Below are positions 43,175-62,739 of a DNA stretch of 64,000 nucleotides, one piece after another. The number at the start of each line of letters is the position of its first letter. The first letter of the stretch is position 1. The notes under the pieces were generated by a model, which made no database searches, was not told the DNA's origin, and was given only the letters and a program-made list of their open reading frames with translations. The DNA is from Watersipora subatra (lineage: Eukaryota): contig NC_088716.1 of assembly GCF_963576615.1 (NCBI RefSeq), positions 43,495,910 to 43,559,909 of the forward strand, written 5' to 3'. A program made the position numbers and the translations under genes.

Positions 43175-43608
43175 GTATATATACATACATACATACATAC
43201 ATACAATATATATACATACAGTATATATACATACAGTATATATACATACAATATATATATACATACAGTATATATACATACAGTATATATACTGTATGTA
43301 TATATACTGTATGTATATATACATACAGTATATATACATACAATATATATAAATACAGTATGTATATATACATACAATATATATACATACAGTATATATA
43401 CATACAGTATATATACATACAATATATATATACATACAGTATATATACATACAGTATATATACTGTATGTATATATACTGTATGTATATATACATACAGT
43501 ATATATACATACAATATATATAAATACAGTATGTATATATACATACAATATATATACATACAGTATATATATATATCTACAGTATATATATAGTATATTA
43601 ATTTTCGG
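43175..43608. repeat. (TATATACATACAG)n-type satellite.
   Basis: Same family as 23781-24062. Source of the artefactual ORFs 43032..43692. Confidence 0.9.
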
Positions 43609-57580: not shown

Positions 57581-57949
57581 TGAAAGAAAAAATGTAACTT
57601 GAACTTACCGTCTAAAGCCATGCAATATATCGAGCTCTCAATCGAGCTCTCACTCGAGCTCTCACTCGAGCTCTCAATCGAGCTCTCACTTAAGCCTGAA
57701 ATACAAATAACAACATGGATATGCAAGTATTAGTCTATAAATTTCTCAATCGCAAAAGTCTAGTTAGGCTTTGCCTGACAGAGTACAGCGTAATCTGTAT
57801 GAGTTGATTTGATAGCGGCAGCAATTTAAAGTTAGATTATCTTCCTGTAACAAAAAGTGACATATTTTGGAAATTGTCTTCCAATCTGCTGTGCACAGGT
57901 CAGGCACTCTCAATTGTTGAAGCATGGCTGCTCATCTATGTATAGTATA

Positions 57950-58127
57950 TATATATATACATATATGTTTATATATATGAACATATGTTTATATATATAT
58001 ACATATATATGTTTATATATATACATATATGTTTATATATATACATATATGTTTATATATATACATATATGTTTATATATACATATATATATATATATTA
58101 TATATATATATATTTATATATATATAT

Positions 58128-58159
<32 letters not shown>

Positions 58160-58170
58160 CACATACAGGA
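57950..58170. repeat. TA-rich microsatellite (tatatatacatatatgtt-type units).
   Basis: Direct inspection. Produces the artefactual ORFs 57857..58212. Confidence 0.9.
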
Positions 58171-58240
58171 CAGATAGCGCAGTTGGTGAGGTATCGGGAC
58201 CGTGATCATTAGGTCCTCGGTTCAAACCCCAACAACTGCA
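58165..58240 (+). other. tRNA-like segment (gatagcgcagttggtgaggtatcgggaccgtgatcattaggtcctcggttcaaacccc), followed by nested palindromes.
   Basis: It has A-box-like 'tagcgcagttggt' and B-box-like 'ggttcaaaccc', but no acceptor stem. It is followed at 58245-58310 by the hairpins 'ctgtagctgaa..ttcagctacag' and 'cagctacaggcagc..gctgcctgtagctg'. Confidence 0.4.
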
Positions 58241-59448
58241 CTTTTCTGTAGCTGAACTGCACGTTTCAGCTACAGGCAGCTAAGCGCTGCCTGTAGCTGA
58301 ACCAGGACAAGGCAGTGAAAAATGGGTTACTGGTTCAAAACGGATGAAATGGACTCAGACTGATAACACGGTCCTCATGCAGTGCTACTTTATGAGTGAA
58401 CTTCAAAAGTGGGGCTACATGGGAAGGATGCGTCAACTGTGGATAAACATGCGCCCTGAAATTGCCACTAACCGCTAAGCAACTTGTAGCTCAGAGGAGT
58501 AACATGATCAAGCGGTACCTCATATCGGAACTTGAGGTAGATGAAATTAGAGAACAATTCACCCAAGTAACCTCAACCAACAAAAAGTGCATGTCAACAC
58601 ACACTGTCACACATACACGATCATGTGTTGACTCACAGGTTGAAGGAGACATGCCTCAACTCACCCTTGGGTCAAGGGTGAGTTGAGGCATGTCTCCTTC
58701 AACCTGTGAGTCAACACAGGTTGAAGGAGTTGTTGATGATATTTTCCGCAAGCTCTCTCACCCTTGGGTCAAGGGTGAGAGAGCTTGCGGAAAATATCAT
58801 CAACAACATGTCAGCTGCTAATGATTATGGAAGCAGGGTACCACTACGAAGAGTTAGCAAGGCCATACCTAAGAAGCTGTTAGAAGACATTAACTTGGCA
58901 CTGAAGTTGATCTCAACTGAATCGATCAGTGAGACTAATGCCTTAATCTACAGTACAGCAACCATCATCTTGGAGGAGATGGATATTAAGCCACTGCCAA
59001 CAAGGCAGTTCCATCCTGGCAGCTGAGGCTACAAAATAAGATCAAGCACTTGCGCAAGAAAGTTAGTAGGCTCAGTGAGAGATCTAACCACAGTTTGAAG
59101 CGTCCAAAAAGGGAAGCCACAGAAGAAGCTCTAGAATCTGCCAAACAGCAGCTAGTAGCACTCTCGGCACGACTGAAGCGGTACACCAAAGAGCGGGATA
59201 ACAAGAGAATGAACAAACTGTTCATCAAAAATTCGTCTAGAGTGTATTCCCAGTTCAAAGGTGAACTGCAGAGGCCAATGTCTGAGCCTCTCCGATCAAA
59301 GTTCAAACTTCAAATTTCTGGAAGGACATCTGGGAGAAAGAGACTACTCATAACACCACTGCAAACTGGCTGAAGAGGCTTAAAGAGAGCCATCAACACA
59401 CTGTGGCTCAGCAAGGACTCACCATCAGCAAATAGCATCAAGTGCAGA

Positions 59449-60567
59449 GTGCAGCGTATGAAGAACTGGGCAGCACCTGGCCATGACATGATTCAAGCCT
59501 TCTGGTTGAAGAAATTGACATCACTTCACACTAGAATGGCTAAGCAGATGGAATGCCTAATAAAACAAGGTGACCATCCAGAATGGCTGACCAAAGGACG
59601 AACTGTACTTCTGATAAAAGATCCAAAGCAGGGGCCAATTCCCAAAAACTATCGACCAATAACGTGCTTGCCCACCACTTGGAAACTGCTCTCCGGAATA
59701 GTTGCAGACAAACTGGAAGAGCACATGAGTCACTATATGACCATCGCTCAGAAAGGAATTGGGCGCAACACCCGAGGAGCCAAACATCAGTTACTGGTGG
59801 ATCGGACGATCTGTCAAGACAGCAGGAAAAGGCAAACCAATCTTGCCATGGCTTGCATTGACTACAAAAAGGTCTATGACTCAATTCCCCATAGTTGGAT
59901 ACTTGAGTGCCTCAGTATGTACAATGTTCACCCTGCTCTTGTGGCATTCATCAAGATGTCAATGACCAAATGGAAGATGGAACTGGAGGCTAATGGCAAA
60001 AAGCTGGCGAGTGTCAAAATTAAGCGAGGCATCTATCAATGTGACTCCTTATCACCGCTGCTCTTCTGCATATGCCTAAACCCTCTAAGCAATATGCTGG
60101 AGGAGACTCAATATGGGTACCAGTTTAAGAATGGCACCAAGATGAACCACCTCTTCTACATGGATGACATCAAGCTGTACGCTAACAAAGAAAGGGACAT
60201 TGATTCGCTAATACACCTCACTCAGGTATACAGCAAGGACATCGGAATGACCTTCGGTATTGAGAAATGTGGAAGGCTAACTCTTAAGAAAGGCCATTCT
60301 ATGTTCACAGATGGCCTAAGAATGCCAAATGGTACCATCAAAGATATAGAAGAAGGGTACAAGTACTTGGGGATTATGCAAAGCAACATCAACCACGAAG
60401 CCAAGGTACGTCACAAAGCCATTACAGAATACAAGAAACGCCTTCGGCAGGTCCTACGGAGCCAGCTCAATGCCAAGAACCAAGTCATGGCAATAAATAC
60501 CTACGCACTGCCAGTAATAAGATATCCATCAGGCATAATAAAGTGGACTGAGGAAGCCATCAAATAA
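59449..60567 (+). CDS. Reverse transcriptase domain of the LINE.
   Basis: PGHDMI, ITCLPTTWKLLSGIVADKL, IDYKKVYDSIPHSW, QCDSLSPLLF and FYMDDIKLYA correspond to RT motifs 0-5. The 'M' at 59449 is internal to the element ORF. Confidence 0.7.
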   Translation: MQRMKNWAAPGHDMIQAFWLKKLTSLHTRMAKQMECLIKQGDHPEWLTKGRTVLLIKDPKQGPIPKNYRPITCLPTTWKLLSGIVADKLEEHMSHYMTIAQKGIGRNTRGAKHQLLVDRTICQDSRKRQTNLAMACIDYKKVYDSIPHSWILECLSMYNVHPALVAFIKMSMTKWKMELEANGKKLASVKIKRGIYQCDSLSPLLFCICLNPLSNMLEETQYGYQFKNGTKMNHLFYMDDIKLYANKERDIDSLIHLTQVYSKDIGMTFGIEKCGRLTLKKGHSMFTDGLRMPNGTIKDIEEGYKYLGIMQSNINHEAKVRHKAITEYKKRLRQVLRSQLNAKNQVMAINTYALPVIRYPSGIIKWTEEAIK

Positions 60568-60733
60568 ACAGATATAGCAACTCGTAAACTGCTGACCATG
60601 CATGGAGCACTCCACCAAAAATCTGACACTACTAGATTGTATCTTAATAGGAAAGATGGCGGTAGGGGATTCAAAAGTGTACAGCAGACAGTGAAAGAAG
60701 AGGAGCAAAGCATCAAAAGCATATGCAGCCTCC

Positions 60734-61585
60734 ATGGCCATTTCAGATAAGTTGCTAGCTGAATTTCAATCGGCTGCTCTTACAACGGACCTACGCCCTG
60801 ATGATGAGGAAATTGACTGGCACGCGAAACCTCTTCATGGTGGTTACCACCAACAAATATCTAAGGTTGGCGATCTTCACCAGACATATATGTGGCTGAA
60901 CAAAGGACACTTAACGGCCAATACAGAGTCGCTAATCATGGCAGCCCAGGAGCAAGTGCTCCCAACAAGGCAATTCCAAACAAAAATCTATCACACTAGG
61001 GACGATCCTAGATGCAGACTGTGCAAAGATGCGCCTGAGACCATTCAACACATCATCAGTGGATGCAAGCAGCTAGCAGGAAACGCATACACTGAGCGGC
61101 ATAATCATGTCGCAGGTGTTGTGTATAGAAGTCTATGTGATGAGTATGGCCTTAATAAACCACAACACCTGTGGGAAGCTCCTGGTAAGGTCAATAAAAA
61201 TGACCGCGCTAAGATCCTCTGGGACTTCTACATCCGAACTGACAAGCATGTCCTAGCAAACCAACCAGATATAGTGGTGGTAGACAAGAAAAACGAAAGG
61301 GCTACTTTAATAGATATAGCAGTACCCAATGACTACAATATAGCCAGCAAAGAAAAAGAAAAGGTAGAGAAATATCTCCCTCTTGGAGAAGAAATTGAAA
61401 AATGCTGGAATGTAAGAACAACTGTAATACCAGTAGTCATTGGGGCATTGGGCGCAATAACACCGGCGCATAAAATGTGGCTTGCCCAAATACCAACAAA
61501 AATCAACTCAGGTGAGTTGCAGAAAAGTGCGCTATTGGGAACAGCTAAGATCTTGAGGCGAGCGCTCAAACTCCCAGGTCTCTGA
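60734..61585 (+). CDS. C-terminal CCHC zinc-finger plus restriction-enzyme-like endonuclease (RLE) domain of the LINE. It is frameshifted relative to the RT.
   Basis: C-x2-C-x8-H-x4-C followed by RHNHV, then (Q)PDIVVVDKK...ATLIDIAVP...KEKEKVEKY, as in R2/R4/NeSL/HERO endonucleases. It lies +1/-1 out of frame from the RT ORF, which ends at 60567. Confidence 0.65.
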   Translation: MAISDKLLAEFQSAALTTDLRPDDEEIDWHAKPLHGGYHQQISKVGDLHQTYMWLNKGHLTANTESLIMAAQEQVLPTRQFQTKIYHTRDDPRCRLCKDAPETIQHIISGCKQLAGNAYTERHNHVAGVVYRSLCDEYGLNKPQHLWEAPGKVNKNDRAKILWDFYIRTDKHVLANQPDIVVVDKKNERATLIDIAVPNDYNIASKEKEKVEKYLPLGEEIEKCWNVRTTVIPVVIGALGAITPAHKMWLAQIPTKINSGELQKSALLGTAKILRRALKLPGL

Positions 61586-62056
61586 TAGGAGACCCGAATT
61601 GCAGCAGAAATTACCACCCATACGGGGTATCCGAGGTGAGGAAACAGTTTTTATATATATATATATATATATATAATCAATAAAACAGACTATAACTTTA
61701 GATAAAACACTTTATTACTATTAGTTCCATGCTTGGTAAAAGCAATCTTCAGATAAATGTCAGCACCAGTTTTGGTTACTTATATACAGCTAGAACTATT
61801 AAAATTACTAAAGGTTTATAGCTGGAAGGTTATGGATTCATAGAAGCATTAGGTTTTAAAGTTGGACAGTGGAAACTTGCTAGCATGTCTGCAGGCGCTG
61901 ACGAGTTCAGTGCGTATGTTTAATGAACTAAGGTGTGGCCTGTATATAATATATAAATTTTCTTGTAGACACAAAGTACAGTTTTAGAGCCATTGGCCAG
62001 CGGCATGGACTGCTCCAGTATTCTCCAGTTGATGGAATAGTTAGTGTTTGAATCCT

Positions 62057-62317
62057 TCAACCGCCATATGTGCTTGTGAGTTCAGTGGCAGTTATTTTAT
62101 TTTGTTGTGTAATTGACGCTTTGTGATTGTTATAGCGCGTTTTAAATGAAGTTTCTGTGAAGCCGATGTAGTTAGCTTCACCATCATGGGAGGTGACAGT
62201 GGCTTGGTAAATTATAGCAGGCTGTAAACATTTCCTCTGTAGTGGGCAGTTGGCTTTTACACGACAGTTGCAAGCATTTGCTGGTGAATTTTTCCTGGTA
62301 GATTCTTTACTTTTCAA
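62057..62317 (-). pseudogene. Fragment encoding a Cys-cluster plus GIY-YIG-like nuclease motif (CNCRVKANCPLQRKCLQPAIIYQATV...ANYIGFTETSFKTRYNNHKAS). It may be a Penelope-like-element endonuclease remnant.
   Basis: ORF 62057..62317 (-). It contains 'IIYQA' (GIY-like), 'YIGFTET' (YIG) and 'RYNNHK' (R..H), preceded by C-x-C-x5-C-x6-C. No RT-coding sequence is detectable upstream on the minus strand (62320-63000 is AT-rich repeat). Confidence 0.4.
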
Positions 62318-62739
62318 GAGTTTTAGGTTGTGCGAGTCGATGATGTTTCTTTATGTTTTTCATACAGCTGTAGCTGATTTTTAGAGTGTAAAAAACAGCT
62401 ATAGCTGTATGAAAAATGTAAAAAACATCATTATTATTAAGAAATTAGTGAATGCGCATGAGCTACTGACCACAAGACCATTGATGTAATGGTCATAGCT
62501 CGACATCAGGCTGTGTAGCTGCCGCCTTAGTTTATTTATAGCAACAGATATTACTCTATAGCCAGAAATATTGCTATATTTATAGGAATGCATTAATCTT
62601 CTTATAATTATCTATCTTATTCTAGAGATGAATGTGTTATTGAAATATTTAGAGCAAACCATAATATACACCTATTATTACTGGTATTTTTAATAAAGTA
62701 AAAATATGTATCAATTTAGCATACAGGACTTTGTAGACA

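Follow-up and report, generated by a model that had tools for sequence, protein, structure and literature searches.

The two long perfect palindromes found in the 5' part of a retrotransposon copy are best explained, with a rough probability of about 0.68, by short-range template switching in an element that had already been inserted and was decaying, either as one complex mutation or as two closely spaced ones. Every base of the rearranged stretch is templated by adjacent sequence, a path of four switches is sufficient to generate the whole arrangement, and the relatives of the element are non-palindromic at this place and carry an ACC spacer in the core. The enzyme responsible was probably a replicative or repair DNA polymerase acting after the insertion, and the rearrangement probably took place in a single event.

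When the window, by which we mean the complete 64-kb stretch of DNA analysed here, was scanned for perfect arms with spacers of up to 12 nt, the palindromes P1 and P2 (Table 1) proved to be by far the longest outside AT-rich simple sequence; the next longest in this class measure 16 and 15 bp, and both lie within the same retrotransposon copy. By simple arithmetic, 38-46 perfect pairs are expected by chance about 1e-17 times per window. The initial annotation had recognized two long perfect palindromes with a common core, which is borne out, but it placed them about 5-9 nt away from their actual positions and gave them arms that were too short; re-measured, these span 46 and 38 nt. The common core, CTCACCCTTGGGTCAAGGGTGAG, comprises 23 nt and forms a direct repeat with a spacing of 97; with up to 3 mismatches allowed it has no further match in the 64-kb window, and shuffled sequences lead one to expect 0. 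If X denotes the left arm of P1 outside the core and Y the right arm of P2 outside the core, both of them coding-sense, the overall layout is X-core-X'-(11 nt)-Y'-core-Y, where X' belongs to the right arm of P1, Y' to the left arm of P2, and the 11-nt linker region is written GGTTGAAGGA(G). P1 and P2 are bridged by a third hairpin, and a 15-nt direct repeat, CACAGGTTGAAGGAG, is present at 58634 and 58715 (spacing 81). The RNA fold predicted for the palindrome region reaches -171 kcal/mol (z = -22), and the predicted DNA folds amount to -59.6 and -46.4 kcal/mol for the two palindromes (z about -20) and to -16.2 kcal/mol for the bridging hairpin (z = -7.1). Long palindromes with short spacers are cruciform-prone and unstable in cloning. 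Elsewhere in the window an AT-rich block occurs twice, at 43254-43342 and 43425-43513 (171 bp apart), with perfect palindromes of 31-nt and 25-nt arms that contain TATATATACATACAGT repeats; these blocks are likely to be part of a tandem or satellite-like array.

Table 1. Features of the retrotransposon copy and of the palindrome region (positions in the window).
Feature	Position (strand)	Description
Host element	58170-61660 (+), approximate boundaries	~3.5 kb; copy of a decayed non-LTR retrotransposon, treated as R2-superfamily-like
Reverse transcriptase ORF	59449-60567 (+)	PF00078 (RVT_1), E = 5.3e-26; R2 protein 9nl2, E = 1.4e-20
C-terminal ORF	60734-61585 (+)	CCHC zinc knuckle and PD..D..K-like stretch (putative restriction-like endonuclease)
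P1 palindrome	58624-58669 / 58673-58718	arms of 46 nt, 100% complementary; spacer GGT
P1 left arm	58624-58669 (+)	ancestral coding X (58624-58659) and left core arm L (CTCACCCTTG, 58660-58669)
Core copy 1	58660-58682 (+)	CTCACCCTTG-GGT-CAAGGGTGAG; itself a palindrome with 10-bp arms
Derived segment 1	58670-58718 (+)	49 nt, reverse complement of X, L and spacer: flipped GGT, right core arm, X'
TGA stop	58684-58686 (+)	made by the rearrangement; ends ORF 58462-58686
Third hairpin, bridging P1 and P2	58694-58729 (+)	15-nt arms 58694-58708 / 58715-58729; loop AGTCAA
Derived segment 2	58719-58729 (+)	11 nt, GGTTGAAGGAG; direct re-copy of 58638-58648
P2 palindrome	58729-58766 / 58770-58807	arms of 38 nt, 100% complementary; spacer GGT
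Derived segment 3	58730-58779 (+)	50 nt, reverse complement of L, spacer, R and Y: Y', core arms, flipped GGT
Core copy 2	58757-58779 (+)	identical to core copy 1, 97 nt downstream
Ancestral coding Y	58780-58807 (+)	outer part of P2 right arm; encodes ELAENIINN, then MSAANDYGSRVPLRR

The placement of the hairpins in the 5' part of a LINE, proposed from the start, is supported by the domain content of the host: this non-LTR retrotransposon carries an RVT_1 domain, and the best matches of its reverse transcriptase among solved structures (PDB) are R2 proteins (1.4e-20), ahead of L1 ORF2p (~7e-15). The C-terminal ORF exhibits a weak match to the CCHC/RLE region of R2 (E = 0.007), in which the C..C..H..C, RHN and PD...D motifs are aligned and the QPDIVVVD..ATLIDIAVP of the element is paired with KPDLIFV..ALVVDVTV of R2; zf-RVT scores 24.4 bits in this ORF, under the Pfam cutoff of 27.5. 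The reconstructed N-terminal 268 aa match no Pfam domain, that of an apurinic-type endonuclease included, and neither zinc finger nor Myb motifs were found in them. From these similarities, we treat the element as R2-superfamily-like and its restriction-like endonuclease as putative. In public data the element has its closest proteins in the bryozoan Watersipora subatra (uncharacterised gene models, 72-86% identity), so that the window most likely stems from that species or one close to it, and the N-terminus of the element is homologous to the W. subatra proteins P0001-P0003 and P0005. Its reading frame is also broken at 58466-58472, at about 59020, at 59373-59449 and at 60567-60734; in one of the several breaks, an extra A turns PELPLTAKQ into PEIATNR followed by a stop. 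We call the copy dead because its reading frame is broken several times, and as judged from its sequence it was or is non-functional independently of the palindrome rearrangement. A blastn comparison revealed no other copies of the element in the 64-kb window, only the element itself, its own palindromes and TA microsatellites.

Several features at and beyond the ends of the element were also recorded. TA-rich microsatellite sequence borders the copy on both sides (57930-58165 and 61652-61676), which points to an insertion into (TA)n or, alternatively, to a 3' tail made of (TA)n. To the eye, the 5' boundary, at 58170-58240, is reminiscent of a tRNA (GCGCAGTTGGTGAGG ... GGTTCAAACCCC, similar to box A / box B), and in this stretch ARAGORN reports no tRNA and Rfam at E <= 1 no match to a tRNA or ribozyme. 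At the 5' end of the element, positions 58245-58305 form a zig-zag of inverted copies (CTGTAGCTGAA ... TTCAGCTACAGGCAGC taagc GCTGCCTGTAGCTGAA); its perfect arms, 16 bp each, occupy 58265-58280 / 58286-58301, and the predicted fold as DNA amounts to -20.5 kcal/mol (z = -5.3). Since the homologous stretch is coding in P0001 (TGSVLLVTEPGQG), this zig-zag may be partly a feature of the family and not a second copy-specific switch event. Downstream of the element, an 86-aa ORF on the minus strand (62057-62317) contains CNC..CPL..KC followed by YIGFTETSFKTRYNNHK and by eye resembles the GIY-YIG endonuclease module of Penelope-like elements; it has no Pfam match at E <= 0.01. Just upstream of this ORF, at 62344-62427, lies an imperfect hairpin that on both strands matches mir-9 and further miRNA models below threshold; it is probably one more inverted repeat of a generic kind.

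That the N-terminal ORF is interrupted by the palindromes, as had been noted, is confirmed: its frame stops right after core copy 1, and the rearrangement brought a net gain of 97 nt, a stop codon and a shift of the frame. In the frame of ORF 58462-58686, X encodes C-VDSQVEGDMPQLTL (translation CVDSQVEGDMPQ), collinear with CVDSRVEEDMHFDL of P0002, and the ELAENIINN encoded by Y lies in the frame of the downstream ORF, collinear with P0001, P0002 and the metagenome protein P0004. At the DNA level, Y is collinear with TTGACCCAAGGGTAAGAGAGCTTGTGGAAAATATCATCAACAAAATG of L002, a contig described below. Removal of 97 nt (58683-58779) joins ORFs 58462-58686 and 58706-59026 into one frame, and the reconstructed protein aligns collinearly, with no gap of that size, to P0001 and P0002 of W. 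subatra and to P0004. These three proteins continue through X-core-Y as CVDSRVEEDM-HFDLDPRVKELAKNIINKM, compared to CVDSQVEGDMPQLTLGSRVRELAENIINNM in the reconstruction, with no inverted arms. Because they read straight through the region and are collinear with the element once the 97 nt are removed, the palindromes are, by this comparison, derived and absent from the visible relatives. The initial annotation left it to a comparison with related copies to decide if the palindromes are copy-specific, and counted a non-palindromic ORF segment in other copies as a refutation. In the relatives the same stretch is indeed an ordinary non-palindromic ORF, but this supports a copy-specific, derived origin and speaks only against the palindromes being a feature of the family. 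Metagenome scans with the protein alignment gave 286 pattern matches, 0 of them confirmed. Scans with GCTTGYGGAAAATATCATCAACAA gave 2 matches (L004 and L005), which are GC-richer and show no similarity to the element beyond the 24-nt pattern; we take them for chance matches in bacterial genes.

The single-core DNA ancestor was inferred from the protein alignments together with contig L002, which starts at the core. This contig (ENA ERZ6864376 c_000000102814) was reached by a protein search with the reverse transcriptase, which returned the ENA protein P0007 (96% identical) encoded on it, and it is 93.4% identical to positions 58770-60757 of the window. It begins with TTG-ACC-CAAGGGTAAGAGAGCTTGTGGAAAATATCATCAACAAAATG, so that its core reads TTG-ACC-CAAGGGT, compared to TTG-GGT-CAAGGGT in both cores of the window; the two spacers, ACC and GGT, are reverse complements of each other. 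The ancestral ACC agrees with the residues LDP in P0001 and P0002, for which CTT GAC CCA would fit, vs LGS in the window (CTT GGG TCA). The first letters of L002, the sole near-identical copy obtained, fall exactly on the palindromic core (TTGACCCAAGGG...), 6 nt to the left of its right arm. This start may be a coincidence, or the assembly of that genome may have broken here because of secondary structure or of a palindrome there too; a de Bruijn break at a palindrome would be expected to leave other letters in these 6 nt beyond the arm.

When the observed sequence was parsed greedily, by longest matches, against the single-core reconstruction, it fell into 5 segments on the strands + - + - +, with 0 untemplated bases: everything upstream up to and including the core, the reverse complement of X (36 nt), an 11-nt re-copy of 58638-58648, a 37-nt reverse complement of Y and the core arm, and the sequence from the spacer onward. 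Positions 58683-58718 are the exact reverse complement of 58624-58659, and 58730-58766 are the exact reverse complement of Y and the right-arm stretch; under an ancestor with ACC the inverted segments measure 49 and 50 nt. The suggestion that such structures arise from template switching or snap-back thereby gains a concrete basis, as all derived bases were copied from adjacent sequence, either directly or as its reverse complement, and the pieces join at microhomologies. The homology at the four switches amounts to 10, 4, 1 and 10 nt, the value of only about 1 nt at switch 3 being a caveat on the template-switch account. In a simulation that starts from the ACC ancestor, four switches reproduce all 301 observed nucleotides exactly, both flipped spacers included; no further event is needed for the 97-nt gain, for P1 and P2, for the hairpin that bridges them or for the 15-nt direct repeat. 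An ancestor with the GGT spacer was rejected: four switches reproduce the sequence from it as well, but an extra earlier flip of the spacer would then be needed with respect to L002, P0001 and P0002.

We propose the following course of events. The ancestor would have been X-CTCACCCTTG-ACC-CAAGGGTGAG-Y, an ordinary coding stretch with a chance palindrome of 10-bp arms, and the switches would have occurred during synthesis of the plus strand, once the left core arm L had been finished. In the first switch, nascent L would anneal to the complementary right core arm R on the plus-sense strand, and backward copying would produce GGT, the right arm and X' (58670-58718). In the second, a 4-nt homology, CACA, would bring synthesis back to the proper template, where 11 nt would be recopied (58719-58729). 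The third would be a jump to the plus-sense strand at the end of Y, yielding Y', the core arms and GGT (58730-58779), and the fourth a return through the core arm R, after which synthesis would go on into Y. The bridging hairpin would have grown, in the same process, from a small ancestral palindrome TGTG-N6-CACA in X.

Template-switch mutations (TSMs) that make perfect hairpins in one event, by intrastrand as well as interstrand switching, and inversions of spacers have been documented; in replication, copying of the nascent or the opposite strand followed by return makes long perfect stems out of inverted repeats that were short or imperfect (PMC8794818, PMC10710096, PMC7954356, PMC8604942). 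The rearrangement described here shares with the TSM in Ripley's quasipalindrome-correction and in the four-point model of Loytynoja and Goldman (PMC7954356, PMC8794818, PMC10710096) the reverse-complement copying of adjacent sequence, the nucleation at an existing short inverted repeat, the one-step formation of perfect stems, the return to the original template and the clustered multi-nucleotide change relative to homologues. It differs from them in comprising two linked switch-and-return cycles, i.e. four switches, and in producing a tandem hairpin pair with an identical 23-nt apex and a bridging third hairpin. With the inversion of spacers and homogenisation of arms by template switching (PMC8604942) it shares the change from ACC to GGT and the resulting LDP to LGS cluster; however, here the flipped spacer is the by-product of a much longer extension of the arms rather than an isolated multinucleotide substitution. 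We regard the locus as a clean multi-switch example of a known mutation process, which involves no new mechanism and no new kind of element. Stems of 46 and 38 bp appear long for TSM events.

The state of the arms suggests that the palindromes are younger than the insertion. The window differs from L002 by 118 substitutions in about 2 kb and by several frameshifts and indels, and in the reverse transcriptase ORF the substitutions are spread over the three codon positions as 13:9:20, which is close to neutral. On the other hand, there are 0 mismatches among the 84 arm pairs of P1 and P2. If about 2-3% of decay per copy had come after the formation of the palindromes, the probability of 0 mismatches in 84 pairs would be roughly 0.006-0.04, an age estimate that assumes the divergence between the window and L002 to be mostly post-insertion and symmetric and the palindromes to be free of internal gene conversion, which could likewise keep the arms identical. 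It is because the arms are perfect while the copy stands ~6% from its closest known relative, with a near-neutral spread over codon positions, that we consider the palindromes to be probably the later event.

This relative age bears on the strongest of the other explanations, according to which the palindromes arose by snap-back and template jumping of the element's own R2-like reverse transcriptase during target-primed reverse transcription. In a variant of this explanation the switches would fall into second-strand synthesis, with RNA as an alternative plus-sense template, and the same scar would be left. The host element is R2-like, R2 proteins are capable of cDNA snap-back synthesis and template jumping in cells (PMC11371274), the snap-back joining antisense to sense element sequence, and the four-switch path is indifferent to which polymerase acted. 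However, R2 snap-backs are known at the 3' end of the cDNA, which corresponds to the 5' junction of the insertion (PMC11371274), whereas the structures described here are internal and short, have come back into register twice and probably postdate the insertion. Upstream of P1 the element is collinear over at least about 320 bp (58301-58623, with homology to the N-terminus of P0001/P0002), so that the reverse transcriptase would have had to regain its template twice. Moreover, as the order of segments implies, first-strand synthesis would need plus-sense X before any minus-sense X template. Together with the perfect arms in a copy that has diverged by ~6% in a near-neutral manner, this makes an origin by reverse transcription unlikely, although it retains some weight, and we favour a replication or repair event after insertion.

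Twin priming of L1 inverts the whole 5' portion next to the junction, and the breakpoint usually bears a small deletion or duplication. Our case resembles it in that the 5' part of a LINE copy contains an inverted segment, but twin priming is not known to give hairpins with 3-nt spacers between collinear flanks. In contrast to both R2 snap-back and twin priming, the inverted segments are not at the 5' junction of the insertion, and the collinear family sequence upstream of them extends at least over 58301-58623.

The remaining explanations deserve far less credit. Switching of strands by a polymerase in vitro can make long perfect palindromes, and the initial annotation had already raised the possibility of an assembly artefact; but the structure is small, internally consistent, fully templated and embedded in otherwise collinear sequence. 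The published assembly of W. subatra was obtained from about 39x PacBio HiFi reads with hifiasm, with amplification not mentioned (PMC12902671), and if the window derives from that assembly, a molecule-specific chimera would be unlikely to win the consensus. An artefact of sequencing, library preparation or assembly thus seems very improbable. We attach still less probability to a tandem duplication of a 97-bp unit followed by inversion between the palindromic cores through recombination. Formally, such an inversion is possible, as each core is a palindrome and the two are exact direct repeats at a distance of 97 nt. However, the junction before inversion would have needed TCCTTCAACC, which is 58638-58647 in inverted form and is not provided by simple duplication; recombination in the core arms leaves the spacers intact and predicts ACC as in L002, while both are GGT; and at least 4 separate events are needed, compared to one four-switch path. 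With 10 nt unexplained and unflipped spacers predicted, we rejected this scenario.

Equally slight is the chance that the hairpins are functional, either as a selected RNA element of the retrotransposon family or as genuine genes for miRNAs or hairpin RNAs: their predicted stability as RNA is extreme, and they match miRNA precursor models in Rfam weakly and in a generic way (mir-2041, 44.3 bits; mir-552, 42.2 bits), but these values are far from the gathering scores of 70 and 100, respectively, and reflect a generic perfect stem, the relatives lack the hairpins, the hairpins destroy the ORF of the element, and the arms are devoid of the bulges or mismatches reported for matured miRNA loci (PMC10710096). 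Rfam and ARAGORN identified no ribozyme and no tRNA. It is tempting to speculate, as a pure conjecture to which we would give hardly any weight, that the remnant is transcribed and harbours a newborn cluster of Dicer-substrate, miRNA-like hairpin RNAs, whose small RNAs target sense and antisense transcripts of relatives in the same family that are still active. If true, this cluster would represent a natural case of template switching founding a transposon-silencing locus in a lophotrochozoan.

Under the template-switch reading that we prefer, the value of this locus lies in its being a legible scar: each base of the 97-nt gain can be assigned to its template, and the strand that was copied can be told from the flipped 3-nt spacers. 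The points of switching show how a 10-bp palindrome in a coding sequence may be turned into perfect hairpins of 46 and 38 bp in one step. Such loci are a trap for repeat annotation and assembly and potential fragile or cruciform-forming sites, and they provide raw material for hairpin RNA genes.
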